In this document: positions 3,232 through 36,820 of the stretch, piece after piece
Layout of the letters: each line of letters starts with the position of its first letter
Position numbering within the stretch: the stretch's first letter is position 1
Assembly: GCA_963678065.2 (NCBI GenBank)
Contig: CAXXVZ010000002.1
Coordinates: forward strand, 288,001 to 352,000
Direction: 5' to 3'
DNA length: 64,000 nucleotides
DNA from: Treponemataceae bacterium
GTDB lineage: Bacteria; Spirochaetota; Spirochaetia; Treponematales; Rectinemataceae
The notes under the pieces: model-generated
The model's database searches: none
Seen by the model: the letters and a program-made list of their open reading frames with translations, nothing else
Told to the model about the DNA's origin: nothing
Program-made: the position numbers and the translations under genes

Positions 3232-3288
3232 CACGCTCAAGGGACGACAGGTCCCGCCCTGAGGCAGGACGGGGAAAGGAGCTGACAG

Positions 3289-4459: not shown

Positions 4460-4504
4460 CGGCTGCGCGGCCATGCGAACGCGATCTTTCCACGGAGGAC
4501 AAAC

Positions 4505-7989: not shown

Positions 7990-7995
7990 GGGCGG

Positions 7996-8024
7996 ATTGT
8001 AGCCGGGTGGATCGCGGAGCTCAA
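7996..8024 (-). promoter_or_regulatory. Sigma70-type promoter, leaderless configuration
   Basis: TTGAGC-17 bp-TACAAT-6 bp-ATG(7989), no Shine-Dalgarno. Confidence 0.65.
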
Positions 8025-8084
8025 GGCGCCGCGGGCGCGCATGCGCCGCCATCGATTCCGGGATCGATATGGCCGACGATACGC

Positions 8085-9065: not shown

Positions 9066-9144
9066 ATCGCGGCCCGCCTCGCGCGAGCGATTCTCGTCTT
9101 CGTCGCTGTCATGCCGGAGCCCCCTTCAGCCCTTCGCGCCGCGC

Positions 9145-16845: not shown

Positions 16846-19086
16846 ATGACGGACGCGAAGAACGACGAACCCTTCATCAACATCTGGTTCGGCAATTTCT
16901 ACGAGCCGGCCTACAGCGACAGGAGCTTCGTGGACCACGCCCTCGACGAGATACGGGAACTCGGCTTCAACAATGTCATGCTGGACTCGAAATCCTGGGA
17001 AGACTTCTTCGCGCGCTACGATGGCGCCCAGGCGAGCCCCTATGTGCACATGCAGGAATACATGATGGAAGCGATGCGTTCGCGTTCGCTGTCGCATAAC
17101 TTCCTCGCCATCTACCTCAACGGGGACAACCTCTATCCCCACATCCGTTTCAGCCCTCCCGTCTACGGCGAATCCGTGACAGCCGCCGACGGAAGCGACG
17201 GGCGCTGGTACAAATACTGGTCACCGAAAGCCCGCGACCTGATGATCTCCCACGTGGCCGGCCTCTTGCGTCTTTATCGCGACAATCACTCCGAATTGAA
17301 AGTCGACGGCCGCATCCGCCTTCCCCTGTGCAGCATGTGGGACCCCATCGTCGCCCCGAGCTTCGACGACGAAGGCATCGCGCGCTACCGGTCCTGGCTG
17401 GCCGCGGAGTACGGCCGCGACATCGGGCGGCTCAACGGTGCCTACGGGAGCGAGTTCGCCGGATTCGACGAGCTCGCTCCCGCCGATTACTGGTACCCGC
17501 TCAAGTACGGCGCGGCCACCCTGTTCACCAAAGACGATGTCGATGCCCTTTCGCCGGCCTTCCGGATCTGGACCGACAACATGAAGTGGAGGTTATTCGA
17601 ACTCGCAGACTATTTCGCCGCCATGAAAACCCGTTTCGCGGCCCTGGACTCCGGACTCTGGCTGAGTCCGAACATCAGCCAGTGGAACATCTTCCTCAAC
17701 ATCAACGGCTCGCGGCTTCCCGGAGTCTCCTTCGGCGACCTCTGGGACACGGCCAACCGCGGCATCGATCCCTTCGTCCTTTGCGACACTGTGGACAACT
17801 GCACGTTCACGGTCGTGCCTGTCAGTCCGCAGGGAGACGCCGACGCTTACGTCGCGGCCTGCCAGGCCGCCATGATACGGAGCATGAACCGCGGCAGGGA
17901 TTTCACGGTCGGCATCTTCTTCGGCCGCTTCCTGTACAACGACATCTACCGTTGCGTCAGCCCCGCCGAGACGGTCGCGAGCGTCGTCGCCTCGGGCGCG
18001 TCCGGCTACTTCGTCTACGGCTACGGCGGCATGGACGACGGCGGCATCATGCACAGGATGGACCCGGCCTTCAAGGAATCGATCCGTGCGGGAAATGCCT
18101 GGGCGAAGGAAGTCATCCCCCTTCTCGGCGCGAAAAAATCGGATGGCATCGCCATCCTCTACCCCTCGGCCATGGCACTCCTCGAACCTCTCGGCGTAGA
18201 GGGCAATGAGGAGAGGAGGCTGGATTTTCTCGGCTCGTACCGCTCGGCGTGCGACTCAGGCTTCCATCCCGACATCCTCTCGATAGAACAGATCGCCGAA
18301 GGCGGGCTCGAGGGCTACTCGACTCTCGTCATCCCCGCCGACGACTGCTACGCCGCACGGCCGGTTCCCGAAGCCGAGCGGAGGCTCGACGAATGGGTCC
18401 GCGCAGGTGGCACTCTCATCCACGGCCCGCGCGACCGCCTTGTCAAAAACGCCTTCGGGATCGAGGGGCGCCGGATGGAAAAGGATTGCATGCTCTACCA
18501 CGAAAAAGCGCTCGTGCAGGGCAGCGATTTCGAGTCTTTCTCTGAAGGGGAGGCTGTGGCCACGTGGATCGGAAGCGGTGGAATCTGCGTCGCGCGCCAC
18601 GGCAGAGGCGCCGGCCGGATCTACTCCTTCGGATTCAGATACGGCTACTCATATATCGCCCGCATCGCGCCCCACGTCCCGCAGGAACAGGGGAACCAGG
18701 AGTTGTACCCTGTCGCCTACCTGTCGCGCGATCCGTTCAGGGACATCCTCGCCGCGGACTTTGCCGATCGAGCTGGGGATATCGGCCCGAATGCCGGTCG
18801 CAGCCCCTGCCGGGGAGTCAAGGACATCGAGTTCGCCGCCTTCGAAAACGGGCTCGTCATTGTAAATCATTCGTCCTACCCGTACAGACTGGATGATCCG
18901 GCACGCGTCGACGCGGCCACAACCGCCGTCGCTGCTGGGGGCGGAGCGGCGGGCACAAATCCGGACATGGGCGCGCTCAGGTCTGGGGCTGGACAGCGGC
19001 ATTTCCAGATACCGGCGGGCAATGACATCCTCATGCCCCATTCGGCGGTGTTCATCGGAAGGCGCGGGAATCTACGGCCTGTCTAG
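16846..19086 (+). CDS. GH42-like glycoside hydrolase with trimerisation/GATase-like domain; specificity unknown
   Basis: IRELGFNNV, YRSWLAAEYGRDIGRLNGAYGSEFAGFDEL (GH42-like), IAILYP, LDEWVRAGGTLI, GRGAGRIYSFG; divergent from the ABC operon. Confidence 0.65.
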   Translation: MTDAKNDEPFINIWFGNFYEPAYSDRSFVDHALDEIRELGFNNVMLDSKSWEDFFARYDGAQASPYVHMQEYMMEAMRSRSLSHNFLAIYLNGDNLYPHIRFSPPVYGESVTAADGSDGRWYKYWSPKARDLMISHVAGLLRLYRDNHSELKVDGRIRLPLCSMWDPIVAPSFDDEGIARYRSWLAAEYGRDIGRLNGAYGSEFAGFDELAPADYWYPLKYGAATLFTKDDVDALSPAFRIWTDNMKWRLFELADYFAAMKTRFAALDSGLWLSPNISQWNIFLNINGSRLPGVSFGDLWDTANRGIDPFVLCDTVDNCTFTVVPVSPQGDADAYVAACQAAMIRSMNRGRDFTVGIFFGRFLYNDIYRCVSPAETVASVVASGASGYFVYGYGGMDDGGIMHRMDPAFKESIRAGNAWAKEVIPLLGAKKSDGIAILYPSAMALLEPLGVEGNEERRLDFLGSYRSACDSGFHPDILSIEQIAEGGLEGYSTLVIPADDCYAARPVPEAERRLDEWVRAGGTLIHGPRDRLVKNAFGIEGRRMEKDCMLYHEKALVQGSDFESFSEGEAVATWIGSGGICVARHGRGAGRIYSFGFRYGYSYIARIAPHVPQEQGNQELYPVAYLSRDPFRDILAADFADRAGDIGPNAGRSPCRGVKDIEFAAFENGLVIVNHSSYPYRLDDPARVDAATTAVAAGGGAAGTNPDMGALRSGAGQRHFQIPAGNDILMPHSAVFIGRRGNLRPV

Positions 19087-19316: not shown

Positions 19317-19715
19317 TCAGTACGCACATCCGGAGACGAGGATCACGTTGCCGCAGTGAATGCCAAAGTCGCCGGTGCGAATGACAGCGAATGACTTCTT
19401 CATCTCCGCGTGGAACTGCGGCCCCTGTACGAACTCAATGGGGATACCGTCCAGCAGTTTTTCGAGCTTCAAAAGCGTTTCCGGCGCACGCTCATGGATT
19501 TCGGTAGTGATGATCGCCCGTTCGACGCAGAACTCTGCGAGGACACCTTCGAGTACTTGCGCGTTTGTCGGAACATTCGGGATAAACGAAAGATCGACTA
19601 GTTCGACGTCATCCGGAATTCCAAAACCGGAATCGACAATCGCCACGTATTTCCTGTGGCCCGCACTCGCCAGCGCCCGCTTCAACTGCGGATTGAGAAT
19701 TCCGCCTCTTATCAT
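19317..19715 (-). CDS. RbsD/FucU family pyranase/mutarotase
   Basis: GILNPQL..LASAGH, IVDSGFGIP, VDLSF..NVP, AVIRTGD..GNVILVSG. Confidence 0.88.
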   Translation of the reverse strand: MIRGGILNPQLKRALASAGHRKYVAIVDSGFGIPDDVELVDLSFIPNVPTNAQVLEGVLAEFCVERAIITTEIHERAPETLLKLEKLLDGIPIEFVQGPQFHAEMKKSFAVIRTGDFGIHCGNVILVSGCAY

Positions 19716-19763
19716 GCCATCCCTCCGAAACTCGAAATCATTTGTTGCGCTTTTATTGAAGAA

Positions 19764-20735
19764 TCAATACGCCTCTTTCCACATGTATCGTCTCTTTGAC
19801 ATAGGGTGGTTTCTGATCTCAGCCATTATTGAAACCACATAACGCTCGACCGGAATCATCACTACGGGATTGAAAAATTCGACTACCGCATCGCTTATGG
19901 CGTTCAGACCCAAGTCCCTCGCGTCAATTACGGTTACCTTGGACGCGTGCTTCTTGAGGAACGCAAGACAGCGTTCGTCGAGAGGTCGCGTACGTCCTTC
20001 ACTCATAAAGAGTATTATCGGCAAGTTCCTGTCGGTGGTCTCGAATGGTCCGTGAAAATACTCGCCGGTATGAATGACTACGGCATGCTTCCATTGCATT
20101 TCCATAAAGTGGCATGCGGCCATAGTATAGGCAGTGCCGAAATTCGATCCGCTTGCCATCACATAGAATATTTCTTCATCCTTGTACTTTTCCGCAAATT
20201 CTTTTCCGATCGGCAAGATATACTTTTTAGCTTTGGAGACGATCAGGTCGATTTTTTCGAATGCTTCCATCGCTTCAGGGTATTCGCTGTATCCCTCGAA
20301 TTGTTCCAGGATCTCGAATCCCAGACGAAGCGATATCGCCTGATTTGCCTGACTATAAACCTGATCGTCGCCGTTGGAATACACTACGACATACCGGGCA
20401 TTTGCGGCCATTGGCGTATCCGGCCGCCCTGTCATCGCTATCGTCAATGCGCCTCTTGAATTGGCGACTTTGACCGCCTCTACGGTCTCACGAGTTCCTT
20501 GCAAGGAACACAGGATGCATATACACCGTTCATCCAATGCATCAGGTGCCGCATGAACGAACTCATTGCTTGTGTATAACCCTACACCAAAGGATTTTGC
20601 CTTGCTCGCGAGGAGGTATTTCCCTGGATAAATGGCCGCCAAGGATCCGCCACAACTGATGAAATACACGGCTTTAAGCCCGCCGGCAGCAGTTATCCTC
20701 GTCTTGATATCTGCGATGATGTTCTTCACGTCCAT
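19764..20735 (-). CDS. frlB: Fructosamine-6-phosphate deglycase (double SIS domain, FrlB family)
   Basis: CGGSLA, GTRETV, FMEMQW, HTGEYFHGPFETTD, SEGRTRPLDER, HPMSKRRYM; AAGGAG RBS before ATG 20735. Confidence 0.9.
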   Translation of the reverse strand: MDVKNIIADIKTRITAAGGLKAVYFISCGGSLAAIYPGKYLLASKAKSFGVGLYTSNEFVHAAPDALDERCICILCSLQGTRETVEAVKVANSRGALTIAMTGRPDTPMAANARYVVVYSNGDDQVYSQANQAISLRLGFEILEQFEGYSEYPEAMEAFEKIDLIVSKAKKYILPIGKEFAEKYKDEEIFYVMASGSNFGTAYTMAACHFMEMQWKHAVVIHTGEYFHGPFETTDRNLPIILFMSEGRTRPLDERCLAFLKKHASKVTVIDARDLGLNAISDAVVEFFNPVVMIPVERYVVSIMAEIRNHPMSKRRYMWKEAY

Positions 20736-20756
20736 GACCAAGCTCCTTCCTCCAGG

Positions 20757-20784
20757 GTGTCCCGCCCGGGTCCGGGCGGGACAC
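20757..20784. other. Perfect GC-rich hairpin between the SBP gene and frlB (probable mRNA-stabilising stem)
   Basis: GTGTCCCGCCCGG-gt-CCGGGCGGGACAC; no U-tract. Confidence 0.7.
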
Positions 20785-20799
20785 TGATTCGCTGTCTGT

Positions 20800-22374
20800 T
20801 TACTTGCTTACGACGACATCTTCGAGTGTAATTCCCGAAATGAACGTCAGGATGCCATCGAGATTCTTGAAATTGCTGACCTTATTGCTGCGAGCAAAGC
20901 ACTGCTCTCTGTAATTAATGTAGACAAATGGAGACAGATCGAGAGCTCTGAGTCTGAACTTGTCGTATATGGCAGCGCGTTTGGCCGGATCGAATGTCCG
21001 CCTGCCTTCAGCGAGCAGCTTTTCGATCTCATCGTCCTGGAACCATGCGGAGCTGTTGAGCCGGGGCTCGCCGCCAGCAAAGTAATTCGCGCACCAATCC
21101 ATGTCGACAATATTTCCTGTCGTACCGGTGATCAGGAAGTCGTATTGCCCTTTATTGGTCCTGTCGATGCGGGTGGCCCAATCCGGCAGTTCAACCTCGA
21201 CGGTTATGCCGATCTTCTTGAGACTGTCCTGGATCACAAGAGCGGTTTGCTTGTGCATCTCGTAGGTTGCGGTCGAGAGCATTTTGACCTTGAAACCGTT
21301 GGGGAAACCGGCCTCGGCGAGAAGCGCTTTGGCCTTCGCAAGATCGTACGAGAAGTACTTGTCGTACTTGCCATCGTAGCCGTTCTGCCCCAAGCGCGTC
21401 GGGAATCCGAAGATCTGGGTTCCTCTGCCCATAAATGCCGTATCGATGACAGCCTGCCTGTCGACTGCGTAGGCTACAGCTTTTCTGATTCTTGAATCAG
21501 CAAAGATGCTTCCTTTCTGGCAATTGAACTGGATCATCATGAACGGCGCTTCGGAAATATCGACTATAATTCCTTTTTCTTTCTGGAAGTTGATTACTTC
21601 CTTTGAAGGCACGTAATCAATAAGATCGACTTCCCCGGACCTGAGCGCATTTGCTCTCGTTGTATCATCGGTATAGAAAACGAACCGCAGTGTCTTTGTT
21701 GCCGGCTTATTCGGTTTATAGAATCCATTGACCGCGGTGAGCACGATCTCGCGGCCCTTTTCCCACTTTGTGAACTTATAGGGACCGCTTCCCATGGGGT
21801 TGGCATCGAGATCATTGTTGTGGGATTGGGTCCAGGCTTTTGAAACGATGGCGCTCTCAGGCAAGGCAAGATAATCGATAAAGGGAGCGACCGGCGCTTT
21901 CAGGATGATCTTGACGACCTTTGCCGATACCACTTCGCAACGATCGACGAGGGTTCTGAAATCAGCGCCGAACGTTGCTTTTGTCTTGGTATCCATGATC
22001 CGTTCGATCGAGAACTTTACATCTTCGGCAGTTACCGTTGTACCGTCGTGGAATGTCGCATTCGGTTTTATTTTGAATGTAAAGGTCAGGCCATCGTTTG
22101 ATACTGTATATGATTCCGCAACCTCGTACCCGATTTTCCCGTCGGCCTCGTAGCTGACAAGGCCACGATATACATTCTGCTTGATGATCCGGGTAGCTTG
22201 ACCTGACTGCATATGGGGATCCATGGTTGCAGGTTCCAGGCTAAGACCCATTCTGAGTTCATCCACCAAGCCGCTCGATGCGGCTGTGGCGCCTCCCGCT
22301 GCTCCGACCGCCAGCGTGCTTGCCAGCAACAGCGCGACTACGAAGCACGACTTGAAAAGCTTCAAACGCTTCAT
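20800..22374 (-). CDS. Peptide/opine-type ABC substrate-binding protein (family 5)
   Basis: Signal peptide, EPATMDPH, FHDGTTVTAEDVKFSIER, PMGSGPYKF, AKALLAEAGFPNGF. Confidence 0.93.
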   Translation of the reverse strand: MKRLKLFKSCFVVALLLASTLAVGAAGGATAASSGLVDELRMGLSLEPATMDPHMQSGQATRIIKQNVYRGLVSYEADGKIGYEVAESYTVSNDGLTFTFKIKPNATFHDGTTVTAEDVKFSIERIMDTKTKATFGADFRTLVDRCEVVSAKVVKIILKAPVAPFIDYLALPESAIVSKAWTQSHNNDLDANPMGSGPYKFTKWEKGREIVLTAVNGFYKPNKPATKTLRFVFYTDDTTRANALRSGEVDLIDYVPSKEVINFQKEKGIIVDISEAPFMMIQFNCQKGSIFADSRIRKAVAYAVDRQAVIDTAFMGRGTQIFGFPTRLGQNGYDGKYDKYFSYDLAKAKALLAEAGFPNGFKVKMLSTATYEMHKQTALVIQDSLKKIGITVEVELPDWATRIDRTNKGQYDFLITGTTGNIVDMDWCANYFAGGEPRLNSSAWFQDDEIEKLLAEGRRTFDPAKRAAIYDKFRLRALDLSPFVYINYREQCFARSNKVSNFKNLDGILTFISGITLEDVVVSK

Positions 22375-22462
22375 ACACTTCCTCCTTCACCCACCGCACG
22401 ATATCCGTCTGCCTCCAAGGTGGTTCGCAACGAAGCGACTCCCCGAAGACATAAATCCCCTG

Positions 22463-23299
22463 TCAAAAACCATCCTTGAGCTTAGGATCAAGAACGTCAC
22501 GAAGCGCGTCACCTAAAAGGTTCGTTGCAAGGATCATCAGACTGAGAAGAAGCGCGGGCCAGACCATATACATGATGTTCACGGACAGATAGTTTTTGGC
22601 GTCTCCGATCATTTGTCCCCACGAAGGATCCGGAGGTTGAACTCCCAAACCAAGGAAGCTCAAACCTGATTCCAGAAGAATCGCATTTGCGATGGTCAGA
22701 CTTATTTGAATCATGATCGGCGAAAAGATATTGGGGATGATCGACTTTGCCATCACCCGAAGGGAACTGGATCCGATGGATATGTCGCTTTCGACGAATT
22801 CCAGTTTTTTGATTTGAAGCGTTGCCGCAAATGACAATCTGGCGAAGTGCGGCGTATAAAGGATACCCACAGCGATCGTCAGGTTTTTTATGCCGGCTCC
22901 CCACAAGCCTACCACCATCATTGCGAGGAGTATCGGAGGAAAACACAGTATGATCTCCACCGCCCGCATGAGCGCGTTTCCGACGCGGCCGCCTACATAT
23001 GCGCCCGTCACACCGATGATCGTCCCGGAGATCAAGGCAATGATGGTTCCCACGATTGCGACAGTGATGGAAGGGCGTATTCCCACGATCAACCGACTGG
23101 CTATGCTTCGGCCAAATTCATCGGTGCCAAGCGGGTAGCTTGCCGACATTGGCTTGAGAATTTCCTTCGTATTCATCGCGCGGGGATCATGTCTGATGAA
23201 CGATGGCCCGAATATCGCGATGAACGCGAGGGGGATCAGTATCGCGAGACTTACTACGAATTTCGAGTTGTGAGCGCACCTTTTGAGTGTATCCATCAT
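22463..23299 (-). CDS. Peptide-type ABC permease (DppC/OppC-like)
   Basis: PLGTDEFGR, ESGLSFLGLGVQPPDPSWG, NLLGDALRDVLDPK. Confidence 0.93.
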   Translation of the reverse strand: MMDTLKRCAHNSKFVVSLAILIPLAFIAIFGPSFIRHDPRAMNTKEILKPMSASYPLGTDEFGRSIASRLIVGIRPSITVAIVGTIIALISGTIIGVTGAYVGGRVGNALMRAVEIILCFPPILLAMMVVGLWGAGIKNLTIAVGILYTPHFARLSFAATLQIKKLEFVESDISIGSSSLRVMAKSIIPNIFSPIMIQISLTIANAILLESGLSFLGLGVQPPDPSWGQMIGDAKNYLSVNIMYMVWPALLLSLMILATNLLGDALRDVLDPKLKDGF

Positions 23300-24252
23300 C
23301 CCACCTCCGCTCTCGCCCGTGGATCCACTACGCCATACAAAACATCAACGAGGAGATTGGCGAGGATGAACAGGGATGACATTACGAGGAGACAGCCTTG
23401 AATCAGGGGATAGTCTCTATGGTTTATTGCCTTGACCAAAAGCGTCGCCAAACCAGGCCAATTGAATACGTATTCGCACAGTACTGTGCCGCCGATCAGG
23501 TTCCCGAGTTGGAGCCCTATGATTGTGATCACCGGGATGATCGCATTCCGGATTACGTGTCGCCTGATGACAACCCGTTCCGGCAACCCCTTGGCCCTCA
23601 GCGCGCGCACCGAATCGCGCGACAGCGCCTCGAGCATGGATGACCGGGTCATACGCATGATTGAAGCCGCGAGACCTAGAGCCAATGTACTGGCAGGAAG
23701 TACCAGCTTCAGAATGTGCTTCAAGGGATTTTGTGAAAAATCGGTATAGCCGCTGGATGGCAGAATCTTCAGCTTCAGGGCGAATGCGACAACAAGCAGA
23801 TATCCCAGGACATAGACAGGAATTGAATTTCCTACAGAGGCGGCTACAGTCAGGGCCATATCAGACAATTTGCCTCGTTTCAACGCTGCCCAGATGCCAA
23901 ATGGTATTCCAATGAAGCAGGCAAGAATCAGTGAGGATATCGCGAGTTCCAAAGTCCTCGGCAACCTCGAAGCTATCGATACGCTGACACGCTCGCGCTC
24001 GCTGTACGATTTCCCCAAGTCGCCGCGCGACAAATGTAAAAGCCAATTGCCATATTGGACGAGCACAGGCTTGTCCAGACCGAGTTCTGCCCGCAACTCC
24101 GCGACTACGGCCGGATCAGGCGCGGTGTCGGTGCCGAGCATCATGAGAACAGGATCGCCGGGCATCATCAAGTCGGCGAAGAAGACTATCGTCATGACGA
24201 CTATGACTTGTACTAAAGCCATGGACAAACGTCTTGCCAAAAAACGAATCAT
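23296..24252 (-). CDS. Peptide-type ABC permease (DppB/OppB-like)
   Basis: MPGDP, LGLDKP, RMTRSSMLE, RAKGL, EYVFNWPGL, RDYPLIQG, DPR. Confidence 0.93.
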   Translation of the reverse strand: MIRFLARRLSMALVQVIVVMTIVFFADLMMPGDPVLMMLGTDTAPDPAVVAELRAELGLDKPVLVQYGNWLLHLSRGDLGKSYSERERVSVSIASRLPRTLELAISSLILACFIGIPFGIWAALKRGKLSDMALTVAASVGNSIPVYVLGYLLVVAFALKLKILPSSGYTDFSQNPLKHILKLVLPASTLALGLAASIMRMTRSSMLEALSRDSVRALRAKGLPERVVIRRHVIRNAIIPVITIIGLQLGNLIGGTVLCEYVFNWPGLATLLVKAINHRDYPLIQGCLLVMSSLFILANLLVDVLYGVVDPRARAEVG

Positions 24253-25235
24253 GGTTTTGCCCCCTCCGACCTTGCCAGGTGACACGCTACTGAATGCTCA
24301 CTCGACAGATACGAGACGACGGGCGGTTCCTTGCTGCAAATTCCCATTGCATACCTGCAACGCGGGTGGAATCTGCACCCTCGAGGCGGATCGACAGGGC
24401 TCGGAACCTCGCCCTGCAGAATTATTCTCTCTGGTTTTGCGGCAATCTCTATGTTTGGCATCGCCGACAGCAGTGCCTGAGTATACGGGTGGCTTGCACT
24501 TGAGTAGAGTTTATCGGCCCGGGCCATTTCGATGATCTGACCGAGATACATTACCGCAATCCGATCGGACATGAATTTTACGACAGACAGGTTGTGAGAG
24601 ATGAAAATATACGTCAATTGAAATTCAGCCTGGATGTCTTTGAGCAGATTCAGAATCTGCGCCTGAATAGACACGTCGAGCGCGGAAACCGGCTCATCGC
24701 AAACGATAAGTTTCGGATTCATCGCTATCGCGCGAGCTATTCCTATACGCTGTCGCTGCCCTCCGGAGAACTCGTGCGGGTACCTGTGCACATAATCCTT
24801 GCTCAATCCGACGAGATCCATAAGACGAAGCACTTCACGCTCCAGGCCGGCTTCAGGCCGGATCCCATGAACCCTGAACGGATCGGCGATTATATCCATG
24901 ACAGTTTGACGAGGATTCAGTGAATCGAATGGCTTCTGGAATACCATGCGCATCTGGGCACGCTGTTCGCGCAGTTTATGGCCTTTCAGTATCCGTAAAT
25001 CGCGGTTTTCAAACAGGATTTCGCCTTCGTCGGGCTCGATGAGTCTGAGCACGATTCTGGCCAGCGTGCTTTTGCCGCAACCGGATTCTCCGACCAATCC
25101 GAATGTCTCGCCTTTCATCACTGAAAATCCGACTCCATCTATGGCATGAACGAAAGCCCTGGATGAGCCGAAGAGCCCTCTTCGCACCGGGAAGTATTTT
25201 TTCAGGCTTCGTGTTTCCAGAAGGACTTCAGCCAA
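24249..25235 (-). CDS. Peptide-type ABC ATPase (DppF/OppF-like)
   Basis: [40 protein letters not shown]. Confidence 0.94.
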   Translation of the reverse strand: MAEVLLETRSLKKYFPVRRGLFGSSRAFVHAIDGVGFSVMKGETFGLVGESGCGKSTLARIVLRLIEPDEGEILFENRDLRILKGHKLREQRAQMRMVFQKPFDSLNPRQTVMDIIADPFRVHGIRPEAGLEREVLRLMDLVGLSKDYVHRYPHEFSGGQRQRIGIARAIAMNPKLIVCDEPVSALDVSIQAQILNLLKDIQAEFQLTYIFISHNLSVVKFMSDRIAVMYLGQIIEMARADKLYSSASHPYTQALLSAMPNIEIAAKPERIILQGEVPSPVDPPRGCRFHPRCRYAMGICSKEPPVVSYLSSEHSVACHLARSEGAKP

Positions 25236-26232
25236 TTCGGGCCCCCTCTTTTATTACCGAAGCCGCTTTCCAGCATTTGACCCGATGCCCGCCGGCAAAC
25301 TCGACCATGGCGGGTTCGGTCTCGAAGCAGACATGGTCCGCCATATGACAACGAGTGCAGAACCTGCAACCTTTGGGCATGGATTTGATATCCGGAACCG
25401 TTCCGACGATACTGTGCAAGCGTGATTCATTCGCATCGATTTTCGGTATCGAGTGCATGAGACCAATCGTATAGGGATGGATGGCGTTTTTAAAAATTGT
25501 CTTTGCAGGCGCCTCCTCCATCAGTTTTCCCGCGTACATCACAAGGATCCTGTCGGCTATCTCCGCGACGACGCCCAGGTCGTGCGTGATTATCACTATG
25601 CCCATTCCATATTCGTCGCGGATATTTCGCAGGAGATCGAGTATCTGTGCCTGCACCGTGACATCGAGAGCCGTAGTCGGTTCGTCAGCGATAAGAAGCT
25701 TGGGGTTGCATGCCAGGGCTATCGCGATCATCACACGCTGGCACATGCCGCCCGAGAGTTCGAACGGATATGAATTGAATACGCGCTCCGGGCTCGCAAT
25801 CCCGACCGATCGAAGAAGATTCAGCGCGCGTTCCCTGGCAATTCGGTTACCAATTCTTTCGTGAACCTGTATTGCCTCTACAATTTGATAGCCAGCCGTG
25901 AACAGCTGATCGAGAGACATCATAGGATCCTGGAAGATCATCGAAATGTCTTTCCCGCGAAGGCTGTACATCTCCTGTTCGTTGAGTGCCAGCACATCGC
26001 GGCCTTCGAACCGGATCGAACTCCCAGGCACAATGCGAGCCTGATTCGGCAATAACCGTATGATCGACAATGATGCCATCGTCTTTCCGCTGCCGCTTTC
26101 GCCGACAATCCCCACTGTCTCGCCCCGGTCGACTTCAAAGCTGAGGCCCTCGACGGCAGAAAATGACTGATGCTTCTTGCCGAACGCCATAGTGAGGTTT
26201 TCGACCGAGAGCAGCGGGGATGCATGCATCAC
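25228..26232 (-). CDS. Peptide-type ABC ATPase (DppD/OppD-like)
   Basis: [38 protein letters not shown]. Confidence 0.94.
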   Translation of the reverse strand: MMHASPLLSVENLTMAFGKKHQSFSAVEGLSFEVDRGETVGIVGESGSGKTMASLSIIRLLPNQARIVPGSSIRFEGRDVLALNEQEMYSLRGKDISMIFQDPMMSLDQLFTAGYQIVEAIQVHERIGNRIARERALNLLRSVGIASPERVFNSYPFELSGGMCQRVMIAIALACNPKLLIADEPTTALDVTVQAQILDLLRNIRDEYGMGIVIITHDLGVVAEIADRILVMYAGKLMEEAPAKTIFKNAIHPYTIGLMHSIPKIDANESRLHSIVGTVPDIKSMPKGCRFCTRCHMADHVCFETEPAMVEFAGGHRVKCWKAASVIKEGARIG

Positions 26233-27980
26233 CGAACTCTCTCCCTGAGCCTCGCGGTTTCCGGTTTGTTGACAATCAATGAATCATCAGCACCTTCCAG
26301 AACCACGCCATACGACTCAGTCGCTTTTTCTCTGGACACTTTCCCGTCAATGACATCGGACAGCACGGCTTCAGCCGATCGTTCGAATGGAATGCCATAT
26401 CCGCCCGATCCTGGCGTCAGGACACTCACGATGTCCCCTTTGTTGAGGAGTATGTCAGTGCATTTTGAAGGGAGACGATCTACCGATCCGCTCACGCGAC
26501 GCAGCGTGTACTGCCCACCATAGCCGCATTCCCCGCCATCGAGACCCCAAGGAGGAATAATCTGCCTGTCACCCAAACCGGTATAGGAGACTTTGTCCAT
26601 AAGGGCCTCGAAATCGCGCTGGATGCCAAGTCCGCCGCGATACTTTCCCGGGCCGCCGCTATCGGGGCGAAGTGCGTATTGTCTGATGAGCACCAAGGGG
26701 AATTCCATTTCCAACGCTTCTATCGGAAGATTCGAAGTGTTCGTCATATGGACCTGAACGCCGCTCAAACCGTCTTTGTGCCTGCTCGCGCCGGAGCCGC
26801 CCGCGATCGTCTCTAGGTATACGTAGAAGCGATCTTTGTCGTGAGGATCGGAGGCGCTGAAGATGGCCGATGTCACCGAACTGTTGCAGCATGCGATGGC
26901 GCGTTCCGGCACCGCTGGAGCCAGTGCTCCGAATATCACATCTGCCACACGCTGGCATGTATCGATCCTTTCTCCTACCGGAGCCGGATTTTGCGCATTG
27001 ATGATGAGTCCCGGCTCGGCAATCACATTGAATGCGCGGTAGATGCCGGCATTGGAAGGTATGTCCGGATCGATCAGCGCCTTCAAGGAATAGAACACAG
27101 TAGCCAGGAGACCATTATAGGTTACGTTGATCGGACCAGGTACCTGACGATGCGTACCGGCGAAGTTGAGTTCCATCGTATCGTCGAGGATGGTGATCTT
27201 TACGGAGATGGGGATGGGATCAGGACAGGCCGCGCCCGCGTCGTCCATATAATCGACGAATACATACTCGCCCTTTTTGATCTTCGAGATACCGGCGCGA
27301 AGCCTCCGCTCCGCATAATCCTGCAGCTCGTACATGCTGTCGATCAGGGTCGATCCGTAACGCCGGTATGCTTCGGCGAGGCGCCTGAGTCCCACGCGGT
27401 TGGACGCGATCTGCGCTTGAAGATCCCCGAAACGCTCCTTCGGAAGACGGCTGTTGACCATGAGAAAACCAAGAATGTCCTCATTCAACTCGCCTTTTTC
27501 GCATATGCGAACGAGAGGAATCTTGATTCCTTCCTGATAGATGCTGACAGCATCGCCGGACGTCGACCCCGGGACTTTTCCTCCGACATCGCTGTGATGT
27601 GCGAGATTGGCGACCCATCCTATAAGTTCATCGCCGTCAAATGCCGGCGCCACGACAGTGATGTCGGGCAAATGCGTTCCGCCGCCGTTGTAGGGATCGT
27701 TTCCCATGAACATATCGCCAGGTTTTATTGCCTGGAGAGGATGTTTCTTGTAGACTTCCTTGACTATTCCAAGCAGGGAACCGAGATGCATCGCCACATG
27801 CTCTGCCTGGGAGACCATATTCCCTTCGGGATCAAATATCGCCGTGGAGATATCGCGACGTTCTTTTATATTGGTCGAGTAGGCACTCTTTATGAGCGCG
27901 ACACCCATCTCTTCGGCTACTGAAAGCAGCAAATTGCCGATGATCTCGACGGTTACGGCATCGATCTTTCCTTTCGTCAT
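26229..27980 (-). CDS. Hydantoinase B / 5-oxoprolinase family subunit
   Basis: SAYSTNIKERRDISTAIFD, GGTHLPD, AHHSDVGG, MTNTSNLPIEALE, SGGPGKYRGGLG, TPGSGGYG. Confidence 0.94.
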   Translation of the reverse strand: MTKGKIDAVTVEIIGNLLLSVAEEMGVALIKSAYSTNIKERRDISTAIFDPEGNMVSQAEHVAMHLGSLLGIVKEVYKKHPLQAIKPGDMFMGNDPYNGGGTHLPDITVVAPAFDGDELIGWVANLAHHSDVGGKVPGSTSGDAVSIYQEGIKIPLVRICEKGELNEDILGFLMVNSRLPKERFGDLQAQIASNRVGLRRLAEAYRRYGSTLIDSMYELQDYAERRLRAGISKIKKGEYVFVDYMDDAGAACPDPIPISVKITILDDTMELNFAGTHRQVPGPINVTYNGLLATVFYSLKALIDPDIPSNAGIYRAFNVIAEPGLIINAQNPAPVGERIDTCQRVADVIFGALAPAVPERAIACCNSSVTSAIFSASDPHDKDRFYVYLETIAGGSGASRHKDGLSGVQVHMTNTSNLPIEALEMEFPLVLIRQYALRPDSGGPGKYRGGLGIQRDFEALMDKVSYTGLGDRQIIPPWGLDGGECGYGGQYTLRRVSGSVDRLPSKCTDILLNKGDIVSVLTPGSGGYGIPFERSAEAVLSDVIDGKVSREKATESYGVVLEGADDSLIVNKPETARLRERVR

Positions 27981-30040
27981 TTCCTGCCTCCAACGTTAGA
28001 GACGATCAAGTTATCGAATCCGTCCGTATATGCCTTCCAGCCGGGAGGAATGACGGACGTCGAGTCCATCTGCTCGATGATTGCCGGCCCTTCTATCGTG
28101 CAACCCGGCTCGATATCTTCCCTTTGATACACCACGGTAGGCCGATATGCTTTCTCGCCTTCGAAGCGAACATTTCGTGTTTCCAGCGGCTTGGGTGGCA
28201 GCGCATCGGGCCGGATCGAGCGGGCGGCAAGTTCCGGTTTCACGATGATGCCGATGGCGCTCAGGCGATAATTCACCATCTGCACGCGCATATTCTTGTT
28301 ATGGTAGCCGTATGAACGGTTGTGTTCGTCGTGGAATTTCCCGATCATCGCGGCCATCGCCGATTCATCGAAATCCCTGTCTACATCGATTGCTATCTCA
28401 TAGTTTTGCCGTTCATAGCGGCACTCAACGGCACAGGTGTAGCGCCTGTCTTTCCGTTTGACGTTCTGCTTGTCGAGCATCGCGTCGCCTTCTTCGAGAA
28501 GACTTGCGATAATGGCCTTGACCTTGCCAAGATTTTCCCGATTGGCGATCAGGACGTTGGAACGGCTTACGTCGAACTTCGTATCGGCCATGAGCAGACC
28601 GAGCGAACAGAGTGTACCCGGAGCCGGAGGAATGAGAACCTTGGAGATGCCCATCTCTTCGGCAACCTCGCACGCATGGAGCGGGCCGGCTCCTCCGAAC
28701 GCCATAAGCGTAAATTCCCGCACATCGTAGCCGCGCTCGACAGAGACCATACGGATAGCGCGTATCATGTTCGAGTTTACGACCGATACCACACCTGCCG
28801 CGGCGTCCTGAATGCTCAATGCCGACTTGCTGCAGATCCTCGTTTCCAATGCTTTCTCCGCAAGCTGTATATCGACATCCATACGGCCGCCGAGAATCTT
28901 TGTCCTGTTGAGCTTGCCAAGCACGATATTTGCGTCCGATACGGTAGGTTCTACGCCACCGCGCATGTAGCATGCCGGCCCTGGCGTGGCGCCCGCGCTC
29001 CGTGGTCCGACCTTCAAGGCTCCGCCATCATCGATGGATGCAATAGATCCGCCGCCCGCGCCGACTGTGATGACATCCAGCATCGGTATGCGGGCTGGAT
29101 AGCCCTCAACCAGGCGCTCATTCGAAACCTGCATTTTGCCGTTCTCGATGAGGCTGATATCGGCACTCGTGCCACCCATATCGAATGATATCACTTTGTC
29201 CATCCCGCACCGGCTTCCGATATATGCCGCGCCTACGACGCCGGCGCTTGGACCGGAAACTGCCGTTTTGATCGGACAATCGACTGTCTCGCCGATCGAT
29301 ATGACCGATCCGTTCGATTGCGTCACATATGGAGCTACGCTGATTCCCGCTTTTTTGATTGATTGCTCGAAATTATGGACATACTTTGCCATCACAGGGC
29401 CAAGATAGGCATTCAACACTGTTGTACTCATCCTGGAGTACTCGCGGAATTCAGGCACCAGCGCGCTAGAGATTGTCACATACGCTTCCGGAAATTCCTT
29501 GTCGATGATGCTTTTTATTTTTTTCTCGTGATCGGGGTTTATGAATGAGAAAAGCGTGCACACGGCTATTGCTTCCGCCCCGCGCTTTTTCAAGTGAGAG
29601 ACAGCTTTCAGGACACTTTCATCATCCAGGGGCTCTCGCACGGAACCGTCGCAAAGAATGCGCTCATCGACTTCGCATTTGAGGTCGGCCGCGACCAGGC
29701 TTTCCGGCTTATCCTTGAGCAGATCGTATAATGAAGGCCGTTTTTGCCAGCCTATCTCCATGAGGTCTTTGAAACCTCTCGTGGTGACCAGCCCGAGCCT
29801 TGCTCCTTTTTTTTCTATCAAAGCGTTTGTAGCGACGGTAGTGCCATGTGCCAGGTATTCAACATCGAGCGGATCTATTTTCTCTTCTTCGAGAATGTGC
29901 AGTATTCCGCTGACGATCGATTTGGAAGGATCCTGTGGCGTCGAACTCTGCTTATAGTTGAACAATCGTCCTGTTTTGGTATTGAACACAGAGAAATCCG
30001 TGAAAGTACCACCCACATCGACACCAATCATAAAACCCAT
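27977..30040 (-). CDS. Hydantoinase A / 5-oxoprolinase family ATP-binding subunit
   Basis: GVDVGGTFTD, HGTTVATNALIE, DMGGTSADI, GAGGGSIA, GPRSAGATPGPACY, FGGAGPLHA. Confidence 0.94.
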   Translation of the reverse strand: MGFMIGVDVGGTFTDFSVFNTKTGRLFNYKQSSTPQDPSKSIVSGILHILEEEKIDPLDVEYLAHGTTVATNALIEKKGARLGLVTTRGFKDLMEIGWQKRPSLYDLLKDKPESLVAADLKCEVDERILCDGSVREPLDDESVLKAVSHLKKRGAEAIAVCTLFSFINPDHEKKIKSIIDKEFPEAYVTISSALVPEFREYSRMSTTVLNAYLGPVMAKYVHNFEQSIKKAGISVAPYVTQSNGSVISIGETVDCPIKTAVSGPSAGVVGAAYIGSRCGMDKVISFDMGGTSADISLIENGKMQVSNERLVEGYPARIPMLDVITVGAGGGSIASIDDGGALKVGPRSAGATPGPACYMRGGVEPTVSDANIVLGKLNRTKILGGRMDVDIQLAEKALETRICSKSALSIQDAAAGVVSVVNSNMIRAIRMVSVERGYDVREFTLMAFGGAGPLHACEVAEEMGISKVLIPPAPGTLCSLGLLMADTKFDVSRSNVLIANRENLGKVKAIIASLLEEGDAMLDKQNVKRKDRRYTCAVECRYERQNYEIAIDVDRDFDESAMAAMIGKFHDEHNRSYGYHNKNMRVQMVNYRLSAIGIIVKPELAARSIRPDALPPKPLETRNVRFEGEKAYRPTVVYQREDIEPGCTIEGPAIIEQMDSTSVIPPGWKAYTDGFDNLIVSNVGGRK

Positions 30041-30109
30041 CTGACTACCCCTTCAATCCGAACAAGGTCTGCTTCAATGGCCTGCGTATAGTGACATTCG
30101 CCACCAACG

Positions 30110-30991
30110 CTATGTGTGATCCGAACCGAAACGCGTGCCATAGCCGAATGCGCCGTGCTCCATACAGGTTTTTGCGGCCATTGCCGCGCCGTTTTCAAGC
30201 GATTCCCTCACCAAGCGGTTATATTTCTCTGAGCCAGTTTCCAGTTCGCCAGCGAAAGCCTTTTTGCCTCTCATGAGGGAGACGAGAAATCCCGCAGCGA
30301 ATGAATCTCCCGCGCCTAGCGTATCCACCGCTTTGACCTGATACGCTTCCTGCCGGAAAATCGCATGCCCATCGAATAACAATGAGCCGCGCTGCCCCAT
30401 TGTAGCGATTATTATTCCGCAGCCCTCACGGTGCAGCCTTCTGCACGCGTCGATCACATGGTCGGCGGCAACATCGCCGCATGAAATGAATCCAAACGAC
30501 ACGTTCGGGGATACTTCTCTGCTTCGAGCGGGGTCTTTCCATGAATTGGAAAAGTCGTAAGAGACAGGAACCTTCAACGATGCAACCAGCCCCAACTGAG
30601 TGTCGAAATGGCCATTGTTGCTCGTATGCACGAGATCGAAATTCTTTATATATGCACAGTCAGCGGAAGTCAGACGGATGGGGTGATCTTTCGCGACGCC
30701 GCCTTTGTTGCTTTGTACAAATATGCGCTCACCATCGACAATATCGACCATCGCGTAGCCGTTCTCACCTTCGTAGTGCCTGCAGTGTGAGCGATCTATT
30801 TCGATAGCATCAAGCACCGAGAGTACGTGCGCCGCGATTTCATCGGTACCGAACACGCCCATATAGGCAGCCGGAACGCCCAATTGCTTTGCGAATACCG
30901 CAACATTGAGCGCCTGCCCGCCAGGATACATGTATCCCGAATTCAAGTACTTATCGCAGACGTTGTCTCCGATACCGATTACGCCAAGCAA
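30110..30991 (-). CDS. frlD: Fructosamine 6-kinase (PfkB family, FrlD-like)
   Basis: IGDNVCDKY, YPGGQALNVAV, GVFGTD, GENGYA, SYDFS, DTLGAGDSF; TTG start. Confidence 0.88.
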   Translation of the reverse strand: MLGVIGIGDNVCDKYLNSGYMYPGGQALNVAVFAKQLGVPAAYMGVFGTDEIAAHVLSVLDAIEIDRSHCRHYEGENGYAMVDIVDGERIFVQSNKGGVAKDHPIRLTSADCAYIKNFDLVHTSNNGHFDTQLGLVASLKVPVSYDFSNSWKDPARSREVSPNVSFGFISCGDVAADHVIDACRRLHREGCGIIIATMGQRGSLLFDGHAIFRQEAYQVKAVDTLGAGDSFAAGFLVSLMRGKKAFAGELETGSEKYNRLVRESLENGAAMAAKTCMEHGAFGYGTRFGSDHT

Positions 30992-31032
30992 AGTGCCCCC
31001 TGACGAATAAACGAGCCGTATTCACATTCATC

Positions 31033-31087
31033 ACAGTCGTCTTATGACTGTATAAGTTATCATAGAACGTATTATTCCAGTTGTCAA
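31033..31087 (-). promoter_or_regulatory. Sigma70 promoter of the frlD operon with candidate GntR operators
   Basis: TTGACA (31087-31082)-17 bp-TATGAT (31064-31059); inverted repeat ACAGTC-N7-GACTGT at 31033-31051 and GTTATCATAGAAC at 31056-31068 overlapping the -10. Confidence 0.8.
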
Positions 31088-31112
31088 TCTTTTTTTTGCT
31101 CAGATTGATAGG

Positions 31113-31835
31113 CTAAAACACAAACTTATACCTGTCTCCCCGTATGAATTGGAGAGAGAGATGCACCGGACGGCTGGCGTCGTCGTATACGATCCCTTTG
31201 AGCCTGAAAAGAGGGGAGTTTGGCCGAATGTTCAGTTGAGATGCGATGGCGAAAGTAGCCAGCGATAGCTCAAGAGTCTTTTTGGCGCTGGAAAGCCTGA
31301 CCCCATGCTCCTTGAGCACCTCGTAAAGAGATTTAGTCTCCAAGTCAGACTGCATGAGATACGAGAAAGGTTTATAAGAGAAATAATTATTCTCAAGAAG
31401 AAGCAGATCGCCATCCGCGTACCGAAGACGCTGGATATGAATCACGTGATCGCCTGGTTCAATGAGCAGCTCTCGGCGTTCGCTTTCGTCTGGTTCCCTG
31501 ATCTCGCGTTTTATGACCTTGCTTCCAGGCCGCATCCCATTGTATGCGCATGCGGTCGAGAAACTGACGAATTCGATTATCTTTCGCTCCAGTTTCGGTT
31601 TTTCGACAAATGTTCCTTTGCCCTGGTGCTTTTCGAGCACCCCTTCCTTAACCAGCTCGGTGATGGCTTTCCGAACGGTGATGCGGCTTATTTTGTACTT
31701 TTCACTCAACTCGCTTTCAGATGGAATACAGGTACCATACCCGTATTCACCGGATTCAACTGCTGCGGCCAAGACTTCCTTCAGCTGTTGATAGAGTGGA
31801 GTCACGATGTTTTGATCAAGAATTTGCTGAGGCAT
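31113..31835 (-). CDS. frlR: GntR/HutC-family regulator with UTRA domain (FrlR-like)
   Basis: PLYQQLKE, IPSESEL, ISRITVRKAI, QGKGTFV, RLRYADG, SLYEVL, RGDRYKF. Confidence 0.88.
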   Translation of the reverse strand: MPQQILDQNIVTPLYQQLKEVLAAAVESGEYGYGTCIPSESELSEKYKISRITVRKAITELVKEGVLEKHQGKGTFVEKPKLERKIIEFVSFSTACAYNGMRPGSKVIKREIREPDESERRELLIEPGDHVIHIQRLRYADGDLLLLENNYFSYKPFSYLMQSDLETKSLYEVLKEHGVRLSSAKKTLELSLATFAIASQLNIRPNSPLFRLKGIVYDDASRPVHLSLQFIRGDRYKFVF

Positions 31836-32165: not shown

Positions 32166-33416
32166 ATGCATTCCGGAAGAATCTTCGCGACAGTCATGAT
32201 CCTGGCATTCGTGTTGTCCTTTCCCGCGATAGCGGCGGGCAAGGCTGACATAAACGCGACAGTGGATGCCATGAGCGGGCAGATCATCGGAATCGCCGAT
32301 TACATCTACCAGAATCCCGAACTCGGGAACAAGGAATACAAAGCGGTCGAACTGCTGACGAAGACCCTGGCCGAAAACGGCTTCGCGATAGAGAAGGGTG
32401 TCGCCGGCCTGGAGACGGCATTCATCGCCACCTACAAGAACGCAGGCGGCGGTCCGGCCATTTCGTTCATGGCCGAGTATGATGCCCTCGAAGGACTCGG
32501 GCATGGCTGCGGTCACAACATCATCGCCGCATCCTGCGCCGGGGCCGCGATCGCGCTCTCGAAAAACCTCGGCGACAGGCCGGCGACAGTGATCGTTTTC
32601 GGCTGCCCGGCCGAAGAGACGACGAGCGGGAAAATCCCCATGGCCGCCGCGGGCCTCTTCAGGCGGGCGGATGTCGGCATGCAGATGCATCCCGGTTCAG
32701 GCAAGGCCGGAGTGGGCAGCATATCGCTCGCCCTCAACCTGATCGACTTCAACTACGAGGGCAAAGCCAGCCACGCCGCGGCCAGCCCCGAACTCGGGCG
32801 CAGCGCTCTCGACGGCGTCATGATGCTCTTCCAGGGCATCGAATTCCTGCGGGAGCACGTCCGCCAGGACATCCGCATGCACGGCATCGTCACCAACGGC
32901 GGGCAGGCGGCCAATATCGTTCCGGAAAAGGCGGCGGCGCGGTTCTACATCCGTGGATTGCAGCGCCCTTACCTGAACAGCGTGGTCGAGAGGGTATACG
33001 CAGTGGCCAACGGAGCGGCGATGGCCACGGGAACGACTGTCACCATCAAGGAAGTCAAGCAGTACGACAACGTGGTGAATGTCCCTTCGTTCATGAAGCT
33101 GATCCAGGATGACGGCAAGGAAGCCGGGGTCGACGAGATACCGACGCCTCCCCCCGTCACCACGGCGGCGGGATCCACGGATTTCGGAACGGCCTCCTCG
33201 CAGATCCCCTGCGTCATGTTCTCCCTCCCCACAGCGCCCGAAGGCGTCTCCGGACATTCGCGCGACTACGTCACCGCGAACGGGACCCCGATGGCGCACG
33301 ACGCGGCCATTCAGGCGGCCAGAATAATGGCCCTGGCCGGCTACGACATCATCGAGAATCCCGCCCTGCTGCAGAAGATCAAGGACGACTGGAAGATCGC
33401 GGTTTCCGGCAAATAA
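32166..33416 (+). CDS. M20D/AbgB-like amidohydrolase with predicted signal peptide
   Basis: NPELGNKE, AEYDAL, GHGCGHN, GCPAEE, GKASHAAASPELGRSALD, GGQAANIVP, GSTDFG; AAGGAGG RBS. Confidence 0.9.
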   Translation: MHSGRIFATVMILAFVLSFPAIAAGKADINATVDAMSGQIIGIADYIYQNPELGNKEYKAVELLTKTLAENGFAIEKGVAGLETAFIATYKNAGGGPAISFMAEYDALEGLGHGCGHNIIAASCAGAAIALSKNLGDRPATVIVFGCPAEETTSGKIPMAAAGLFRRADVGMQMHPGSGKAGVGSISLALNLIDFNYEGKASHAAASPELGRSALDGVMMLFQGIEFLREHVRQDIRMHGIVTNGGQAANIVPEKAAARFYIRGLQRPYLNSVVERVYAVANGAAMATGTTVTIKEVKQYDNVVNVPSFMKLIQDDGKEAGVDEIPTPPPVTTAAGSTDFGTASSQIPCVMFSLPTAPEGVSGHSRDYVTANGTPMAHDAAIQAARIMALAGYDIIENPALLQKIKDDWKIAVSGK

Positions 33417-33559: not shown

Positions 33560-34051
33560 TCATGTCCGCCAGTACTCGCTCCCGTCGGGTTTGCGGTCGA
33601 GGAAGCGGTACTCGATCAAATACCGCCTGATGGTCACGTAGTCGTCCCACACAGGCAACAGGATCGCGTTGACTTCTTTTTCCTTGTATCGGCGCACCGG
33701 CTCGAAGAGTTCCGCGATTCGACGCAGAAGGACGAGTTTCTCTTTCTGGCGCTTCGGCCAGGAGTGCATGACGAATCCGGACTGTGCGCTCCCGGCGCTG
33801 GCCGGATATTCGATGAACTGCCCTGCGCCAGCTCCTTTTTCGTCGAGAAGCTTCATGAGGGCGAGGAAGACGCGCGCCTCGGACTCCCGCCTGCGCAGCT
33901 GGAAGCGGTGGTTGCGCACGGTGGAGGCGGACTTGCCGCCGAGGGCCGATGCGATCTCGGCATCGCTCTTCCCTTCGTAGAGCAAGGAAAGAACCCTATC
34001 GTAGTCAAACAAGCAGGCACGGCGTCCGGCCCCGGAGGAAAGACGCAACAT
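33560..34051 (-). pseudogene. DUF2087-domain protein with HTH; appears truncated, start uncertain
   Basis: YEGKSDAEIA...STVRNHRFQLR and YKEKEVNAIL...DDYVTIRRYLIEYRFLDR; no convincing start or RBS, and shorter than the homologues I recall. Confidence 0.55.
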
Positions 34052-34105
34052 CCGAATACTAAAGTATATTTATTCAATTTTCCGTATATACTTCACATCT
34101 CCACA

Positions 34106-35809: not shown

Positions 35810-35846
35810 CCGCGAATCCACGCCTTCCAAGGTTGTGGATTCGCGG
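35810..35846. other. Long hairpin downstream of the dpp SBP gene
   Basis: CCGCGAATCCAC...GTGGATTCGCGG 12-bp stem with an inner CCTT/AAGG stem. Confidence 0.7.
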
Positions 35847-35882
35847 GTTTGCCGGCATGCGGACAGGACCGGGAGGTCATCC

Positions 35883-36820
35883 ATGAGACGCTACATCCTC
35901 AAAAAACTGATCCTCGCCATTCCGGTCATGTTCGGCATGGTCTTCATCACCTTCTTCCTGCTCAATGTCGTCCCGGGCGACCCTGTCGCCCTCATGATGA
36001 AAGAGCACATCAGCCCCGATGTCGTGGCGCGGGTCCGGGCGCAGATGCATCTCGACGATCCCGCGATCGTGAGGTTCTTCCGTTTCCTGTGGAACGCACT
36101 CCACGGCGATTTCGGCATCTCCTACAAGCTGAACAGACCTGTCGCCTCTCTCCTCCTCGCGGCCTTCCCGAACACCCTCGCGCTGGCGGTCGCGGCGGCC
36201 CTCGTCTCCTGGCTGATCGGCATCCCCGCGGGAATCCTTTCCGCCGTCAGGCGCTACTCCTTTGCCGACAATTTCTTCATGGGCTTCTCCGTCATGGGCG
36301 TCTCGATGCCGGTGTTCTGGACGGGGCTGCTCTTCCAGTACATCTTCGCGCTCAAGCTCGGCATCCTGCCCGTCGCGGGTTTCAGGGGCCCCGAGTACCT
36401 CGTCATGCCGGCCATCGTCCTCGGGTGGAGTTCGGCGGGCACCATCGCGCGGCTCACCCGGTCGAGTCTCCTCGAAGTCATGCGCAACGACTACATCCGT
36501 ACGGCGCGGGCAAAAGGCTTGCGTGAAATCAAGGTCATCCTCGATCACGCGCTCAAGAACTCCCTCCTCCCCGTCGTGACCGTCATGGCCCTCCAGGTGG
36601 CGGGTCTCCTGTCGGGGGCCGTCATCACCGAGAGCGTCTTCGGCATTCCGGCATCGGCCGGGTGGCCGTGAACGCCATCCAGAGCCGCGACATGCCCCTT
36701 CTCCAGGGCTCCGTCGTGCTCACGACATTCCTCGTGATCGCGGGGAACATCATCGCCGACATCATGTACTCCTACCTCGATCCGCGGATCAAATACAACA
36801 AACCGGGGGCCGCCCGATGA
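35883..36820 (+). pseudogene. DppB-like permease with a single-base frameshift at ~36650 (true lesion or sequencing error)
   Basis: Frame reads ...ITESVFGIP then shifts; another frame continues GIGRVAVNAIQSRDMPLLQGSVV...YSYLDPRIKY to TGA 36818-36820, overlapping the next ATG. Confidence 0.88.

Follow-up and report, generated by a model that had tools for sequence, protein, structure and literature searches.

The 64,000-nucleotide stretch of the Treponemataceae bacterium genome analysed here (hereafter the window) carries an 11-gene cluster that joins a FrlD/FrlB-type kinase and deglycase to an ATP-dependent lactamase and an AgaA-type ATP-binding cassette (ABC) transporter. With a probability of roughly 0.7, we propose that this cluster serves the import and breakdown of N-(1-deoxyfructosyl)-5-oxoproline (fructosyl-pyroglutamate, here dfop) to glucose-6-phosphate and glutamate. 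From the gene content, the protein families, the intact catalytic motifs and the conserved linkage of these genes we infer the substrate and every reaction of the following route. Dfop would enter through the AgaA-type transporter, and its lactam ring would be opened by the ATP-dependent HydA/HydB pair to yield fructosyl-glutamate. FrlD would phosphorylate C6, before or after ring opening, and FrlB would then deglycate the product to glucose-6-phosphate and glutamate. On chemical grounds ring opening should be a required step: the lactam nitrogen belongs to an amide, which a Schiff-base deglycase is not expected to cleave. An RbsD-like protein may speed the change from pyranose to furanose, freeing the 6-hydroxyl for the kinase, and FrlR likely regulates the operon.

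All 11 open reading frames lie on the minus strand, run from 31835 to 19317 without internal stops and follow the order frlR-frlD-hydA-hydB-ABC (five genes)-frlB-rbsD-like. This is the co-oriented cluster reported by the first-pass annotation, at the same place and in the same order, and its family assignments agree with the Pfam and NCBIfam matches (GntR+UTRA, PfkB, Hydantoinase_A, Hydantoinase_B, oligo_HPY ATPases, SBP_bac_5, SIS and RbsD_FucU). The overlapping stop and start codons it had described are found at five of the ten junctions, from hydA to dppC, the other five gaps measuring 48-121 nucleotides. Related gene sets in other genomes, including one on the Ti plasmid pTiChry5, are referred to below as cassettes.

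The kinase gene (30110..30991) encodes a PfkB protein with an intact DTLGAGD motif. Its best NCBIfam match is the fructoselysine 6-kinase family NF007321, at 177 bits versus 69 bits for the next family, and it is 29% identical to E. coli FrlD, 34% to the moc kinase of Ti plasmids and 36% to the kinase of the pTiChry5 cassette. The SIS-family deglycase (19764..20741), of the FrlB/FraB type, is 25% identical to E. coli FrlB and finds its best PDB matches in 9OTJ (E 1e-82) and 3EUA, a 'fructose-aminoacid-6-phosphate deglycase' (E 8e-81). A catalytic Glu and His 16 residues apart, E214/H230 in FraB, serve as a criterion for SIS deglycases in the available part of one source (PMC10285752), and the cluster protein has this pair with the same spacing and numbering. 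Deglycases of the FraB and B. subtilis FrlB type are described as acting on alpha-glycated amino acids in the portions available of PMC12632257 and PMC4941530, the former adding that B. subtilis FrlB and FrlD favour these substrates. The regulator gene (31113..31835) encodes a GntR+UTRA protein 34% identical to E. coli FrlR, a relative of which follows frlB in clostridial cassettes. A second FrlB-like SIS gene, 30% identical to the cluster FrlB, lies elsewhere in the genome (C3; L192:6264-10885), where it adjoins a Gfo/Idh/MocA oxidoreductase, sugar ABC permeases and a ROK regulator.

The two lactamase genes, hydA (27977..30040; Hydantoinase_A) and hydB (26229..27980; Hydantoinase_B), encode AgaF- and AgaG-like subunits that both align over their full length with ATP-dependent lactamases, as members of the two-subunit family. 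HydA is 44% identical to AgaF and 42% to the pTiChry5 copy, HydB 45% to AgaG and 40% to the pTiChry5 copy. The actin-like ATP motifs of HydA are intact (DVGGTFTD and DMGGTS), and D43, H103, D106 and H128 of HydB align with D41, H99, D102 and H124 of caprolactamase, which we take to be its zinc ligands. The pair falls short of the curated CapA/CapB score (600 and 304 bits versus a cut-off of 1000) and is not a strict AgaF/AgaG ortholog in the tree. An ATP-driven route of lactam ring opening is described for the hydantoinase/caprolactamase family in the available text of PMC6061476.

The transporter resembles the aga system throughout. Its substrate-binding protein (20800..22374; SBP_bac_5) is 46% identical to AgaA, 46% to the pTiChry5 protein and 27% to E. 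coli DppA, and its PDB match to AgaA (6HLX, E 8.9e-141) is better than the second-best entry (4.5e-57) by 84 orders of magnitude. The first permease (23296..24285, with its true start probably at 24252, where an ATGA overlap lies) is 56% identical to the first aga permease versus 42% to another Ti-plasmid permease; the second (22463..23299) gives 52% to the second aga permease versus 37%. The two ATPases, of DppD type (25228..26232) and DppF type (24249..25235) by family match, are each 51% identical to one half of AgaD, the N-half and the C-half, respectively. AgaA presumably binds agropinic acid, whose ring AgaF/AgaG are taken to open; the aga gene names used here were assigned by position around the PDB AgaA.

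We then considered how widely this gene combination is kept. Two collection scans seeded with the binding protein gave at least 160 loci, a sample of its orthologs, which were sorted by score together with two plasmid loci. Among the matches listed, 14 of the 16 high-scoring loci have hydB, 13 have frlB and 13 have frlD (at L001 as part of another operon), versus two with hydB and none with frl genes among 10 middle-scoring loci. The 136 low-scoring loci listed, which hold distant binding proteins, include two with hydB and a single one with frlB/frlD, Agromyces L023, which is itself a cassette. Once further loci had been added, 24 non-window loci are listed above 400 bits: 14 carry hydB, frlB and frlD within 8 kb without agaE, six carry agaE, and four are short, partial or different. 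Co-occurrence of the lactamase, FrlB and FrlD with an AgaA-type binding protein is well above background. Named carriers are Youngiibacter, Clostridium, Paenibacillus, Neorhizobium, Microvirga, Oryzicola, Agrobacterium and Agromyces, with several gene orders. The first-pass annotation had called for a neighbourhood search for frl genes beside hydantoinase A/B, and had named lack of conservation as a reason to abandon its proposal; the linkage recurs in three named phyla. In Neorhizobium galegae VafX2 the cassette (L179:2400-12100) looks split in many genes, through decay or sequencing error.

The distribution is patchy. The binding protein was found neither in 40 close relatives nor in 300 genomes of the host's phylum, and a hydB search within the genus returned the centre genome only (1 of 7). 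In the large searches, three to four candidates were scored per genome. The binding protein occurred in two of 399 genomes sampled from one clostridial class (the query-centre genome included) and in one of 401 Bacilli, again the centre genome. Among 401 Hyphomicrobiales, the top-scoring binding protein was confined to the centre genome, nine further genomes having more distant copies. A hydB-seeded search of one clostridial family matched three of 214 scored genomes, and both of the new matches have the window's core order, frlD-hydA-hydB-ABC-frlB.

Ti plasmids offer a comparison. Hydantoinase pairs on other Ti plasmids have likewise been inferred to open lactam opines (available parts of PMC6733357 and PMC8554961), and chrysopine-type tumours contain Amadori opines according to the accessible text of PMC4231840. 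On pTiChry5 (NZ_KX388536), a single run beside trbI consists of a LysR gene and then hydA, hydB, an SIS deglycase, a fructoselysine-kinase-like gene and an AgaA-type transporter. On the octopine-type plasmid, agaG-F-E and agaD-A sit between trbI and the moc genes, and three further plasmids have the same agaE arrangement next to moc. The pTiChry5 cassette fills the slot where mannityl-opine plasmids have agaA-G. Its kinase and deglycase are not the moc pair: pTiChry5 has a separate mocD/mocE-like pair 82% identical to the octopine-type pair, and the cassette's own pair reaches only 27% and 37%. Amadori opines of chrysopine-type tumours were reportedly described by Chilton in 1995, and we take dfop to be one of them. 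The position of the cassette, on an Amadori-opine plasmid and in the aga slot, therefore points to dfop as the substrate. Vaudequin-Dransart in 1995 is reported to have found dfop use in Chry strains and in degraders of agropinic acid, with fig strains unable to use it; the plasmid examined from A. larrymoorei has no AgaA-type protein, which fits this reported phenotype. pTiChry5 itself was reportedly described by Shao in 2018, and the role of its copy may already have been assigned in published work such as that one. With the AgaA-group binding protein, the AgaF/G-like lactamase, the recurrent linkage and the pTiChry5 cassette, the analogy to the Agrobacterium aga genes first drawn from the sequence is borne out. 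A glutamine amidotransferase gene (L178:8815-9579) adjoins the pTiChry5 cassette and is unmatched in the other loci compared.

Several observations weigh against dfop breakdown as the function. FrlD, FrlB and FrlR each score under their curated cut-offs, FrlD against 247 bits and FrlB with 105 against 430 bits. Identity of the window HydB to the pTiChry5 copy (40%) does not exceed that to AgaG (45%). The lactamases of different cassettes do not form one clade, nor do the deglycases, so substrates may differ between cassette lineages. The 24 loci above 400 bits include hand-picked plasmids and close kin (L002/L010 and L004/L195) and are a non-random sample. One locus has the binding protein, HydA/B and a PfkB kinase with no frlB in 25 kb (L164), another has the binding protein alone (L087), and a third holds both agaE and frlB/frlD (L168). 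A HydA/B pair 69/72% identical to the window's lies beside a TRAP transporter, an FGGY kinase and a FrlC-like gene, with no frlB/frlD within its 11-kb contig (L166). Six of nine plasmids with a presumed chrysopine synthase carry the cassette, near-identical copies that amount to one lineage, and pTi2788 has neither cassette nor AgaA-type protein. Finally, the RbsD/FucU-type pyranase gene (19317..19715; Pfam RbsD_FucU), which the first-pass annotation had included, is indeed present as the eleventh gene but is an accessory add-on: it has no match in any other cassette locus compared. Its product, 34% identical to E. coli RbsD with His20 kept, has only four homologs at E 1e-20.

A strict either/or between agaE and frlB/frlD is rejected by L168 and L023. 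The L166 cluster (85-10157), with BtpA, the FGGY kinase, a FrlC-like TIM barrel and TRAP genes, is a possible pathway for another sugar lactam. At L164 (4957-19953), the AgaA-type transporter and HydA/B stand with the PfkB kinase, an amidohydrolase and an enolase-family gene, and a deglycase is absent.

The same divergence feeds the strongest alternative, in which the pathway logic is unchanged and the substrate is some other cyclic glycated molecule. Examples would be fructosyl-aspartimide, a glycated diketopiperazine or hydantoin, and the lactam of a different sugar. Clostridial-type and rhizobial cassettes are deeply diverged, and the aligned pocket region of the binding protein reads GTTGN in the window and clostridial proteins, GTAGD in pTiChry5 and GSLGE in AgaA. 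In a quick tree of the binding proteins, from which one partial row (L090) was left out, the window protein groups with clostridial and metagenome proteins (support 100), and Ti-plasmid AgaA and pTiChry5-type proteins are sister groups (support 100); its deep forks leave an origin of AgaA from the frl type unsettled, a further point against the wider proposal. A close HydA/B pair stands in a different sugar context at L166, and the extra RbsD-like gene could be a sign of another sugar. The lactamase family is also broad, and caprolactamase is given as inactive on 5-oxoproline in the available text of PMC6061476. Against this, the one cassette whose ecological setting is known belongs to an Amadori-opine plasmid, and fructosyl-pyroglutamate is the glycated lactam of wide reported occurrence. 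Its name or a variant appears in 46 papers, mostly plant or food metabolomics among the 20 matches listed, with annotations not all verified; one example is an entry at m/z 290.09 in a tea table, in the part available of PMC8892000. We regard a different ring compound as unlikely, albeit deserving of some weight.

It is less probable still that the cluster combines two neighbouring functions, FrlD/FrlB for ordinary fructosyl-amino acids or peptides taken up by peptide transport and HydA/HydB for free 5-oxoproline or hydantoins. The transporter does belong to the peptide family, and databases label these binding proteins glutathione or peptide binders. However, R355, W405 and D408 of mature DppA, presumably the residues gripping the peptide ends, align with E372, T418 and N421 of the binding protein, and the peptide-anchoring residues are thus not kept. 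Elsewhere in the genome (L191, C3:1780139-1784029), PxpA and PxpC-family genes are neighbours, and free 5-oxoproline is therefore probably handled there. The same gene set, moreover, is kept in several different orders across phyla. The PxpA/PxpC genes adjoin a two-part D-glutamate cyclase.

An agropinic acid pathway, in which the opine would be opened to mannopinic acid, oxidised to fructosyl-glutamate by a dehydrogenase encoded elsewhere and passed to FrlD/FrlB, is very improbable. In its favour, the binding protein and lactamase are equally close to AgaA/F/G and to their pTiChry5 counterparts, and a gene elsewhere in the genome encodes a relative, at 42% identity, of the aldo/keto reductase from the moc region. 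Such reductases are common, however, and agropinic acid, a tumour opine, is an unlikely food for clostridia. No dehydrogenase or AgaE-like gene occurs in the window cluster, nor in the frl-type cassettes of clostridia and rhizobia. The genome holds no AgaE homolog at E 1e-8.

Returning to the cluster proposed to degrade dfop, frlR probably has its own transcript and frlD to rbsD probably form the catabolic unit, as judged from the promoter-like sites found both before frlR and between frlR and frlD. The latter, a predicted sigma-70 promoter (31059..31087, minus strand; TTGACA-17-TATGAT), rests on a consensus match of 11/12, and the second sigma-70-like site, before frlR, matches 10/12 positions; overall the scan gave 14 sites versus 11.6 +/- 3.4 in shuffles, that is, no excess. 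A candidate operator, a TTATGAC half-site at both promoters, is not clearly shared upstream of the homologs. Only one RNA run contains the stretch, with 0.06 of its words.

The assembly of the cluster region is supported by contigs from two runs. A single contig of run X3, which may be the source of the assembly, covers the entire 64-kb stretch. In run X5, which belongs to a different study, overlapping contigs span rbsD to frlR with 1-2% differences. At position 29993, inside hydA, an X5 contig (depth 5.45) has one extra base, a strain frameshift or an error. Cluster G+C is 52% versus a genome median of 60%, a value equally low in 8% of 418 same-sized windows. Because of this low G+C, the absence of the binding protein from the relatives and phylum genomes searched, and its grouping with clostridial and metagenome proteins, acquisition of the cluster by transfer is likely; no mobile-element repeats were seen at its edges.

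Divergent from frlR lies an M20 amidohydrolase gene of ordinary G+C (32166-33416, plus strand), which has no match in any cassette locus and was excluded from the cluster on that ground. A DUF2087 gene (33560-34051, minus strand) looks shortened, and the alignment of an X5 contig is gapped over 33650-34061. A second peptide ABC operon includes a DppB-type permease gene (35835-36790, plus strand) whose frame changes near 36655, from a broken gene or an assembly error. On the other side of the cluster, a 746-residue protein (16846-19086, plus strand) has no Pfam or NCBIfam match; it is placed with GH42-like beta-galactosidases in Atlas (score 0.99), a family on 10-31% of top-cluster members, and its gene faces a sugar ABC transporter and a two-component system. 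Glycan-use genes at 4505-10329 and 45692-56439 encode an alpha-rhamnosidase, a GH88 protein, an alpha-fucosidase, a GHL6 hydrolase and two URO-D-family proteins.

To our knowledge, the Amadori pathways established in bacteria start from fructosyl-amino acids in open-chain form. The ring-closed compound, a frequent finding in extracts of plants and food, calls for one more step, and the cassette is a full candidate route for it. Neither this set of genes together nor enzymes for dfop are described in the open literature searched, which leaves most subscription papers outside. The earlier claim that no characterised locus has this combination holds to that extent, but the combination itself recurs elsewhere, including on the long-studied pTiChry5. 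The cassette might belong to an undescribed, patchily distributed pathway through which fructosyl-pyroglutamate, a Maillard product common in plants and food, feeds free-living anaerobes as well as paenibacilli, rhizobia and actinomycetes; aga would have arisen from it by a swap of kinase and deglycase for an oxidase. We give this scenario slightly less than even odds. The chemistry would fit such a swap: a reduced mannityl lactam could not be deglycated and would pair with an oxidase, and a fructosyl lactam would pair with kinase and deglycase. If correct, the assignment would give a function to binding proteins that now carry glutathione- or peptide-binding labels. It would also identify the likely genes with which chrysopine Ti plasmids confer use of dfop, and suggest that a lactam-opine pathway may have had saprophytic beginnings.

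Comparison with known systems places the cluster between two of them. It shares with aga the AgaA-group binding protein (46%), permeases (52-56%), ATPases (51%) and two-subunit lactamase (44-45%), and differs in lacking AgaE, in having FrlD and FrlB in the same run, in its split ATPases and GntR regulator and in being chromosomal. The pTiChry5 cassette has the same catabolic functions in one co-oriented run, also without AgaE, but differs in order, with 28-56% identity per gene, a LysR regulator, a glutamine amidotransferase and no RbsD. CapAB, N-methylhydantoinase and 5-oxoprolinase share full-length alignment of both subunits and intact motifs; the predicted substrate here is instead an N-glycated lactam, and the scores lie far below the CapA/CapB cut-offs. 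The E. coli frlABCDR system differs in its FrlA permease and FrlC epimerase, neither of which is in the cluster, and the cluster FrlB is not of the epsilon type. Salmonella fraBDAE and B. subtilis frlBONMD share the kinase and deglycase core for alpha-glycated amino acids. In fra, this core is joined by the asparaginase FraE, a hydrolase for a preparatory step (available parts of PMC12632257 and PMC4941530). In the cluster, by contrast, the preparatory step would fall to an intracellular ATP-dependent lactamase, and the ABC transporter belongs to the peptide family; neither the FraE asparaginase nor the FraA permease family occurs among the 11 genes. By its gene complement, the system thus appears aga-like at the front and fra/frl-like at the back and a member of neither, with no AgaE on the one side and no FraE, FraA or FrlC on the other.

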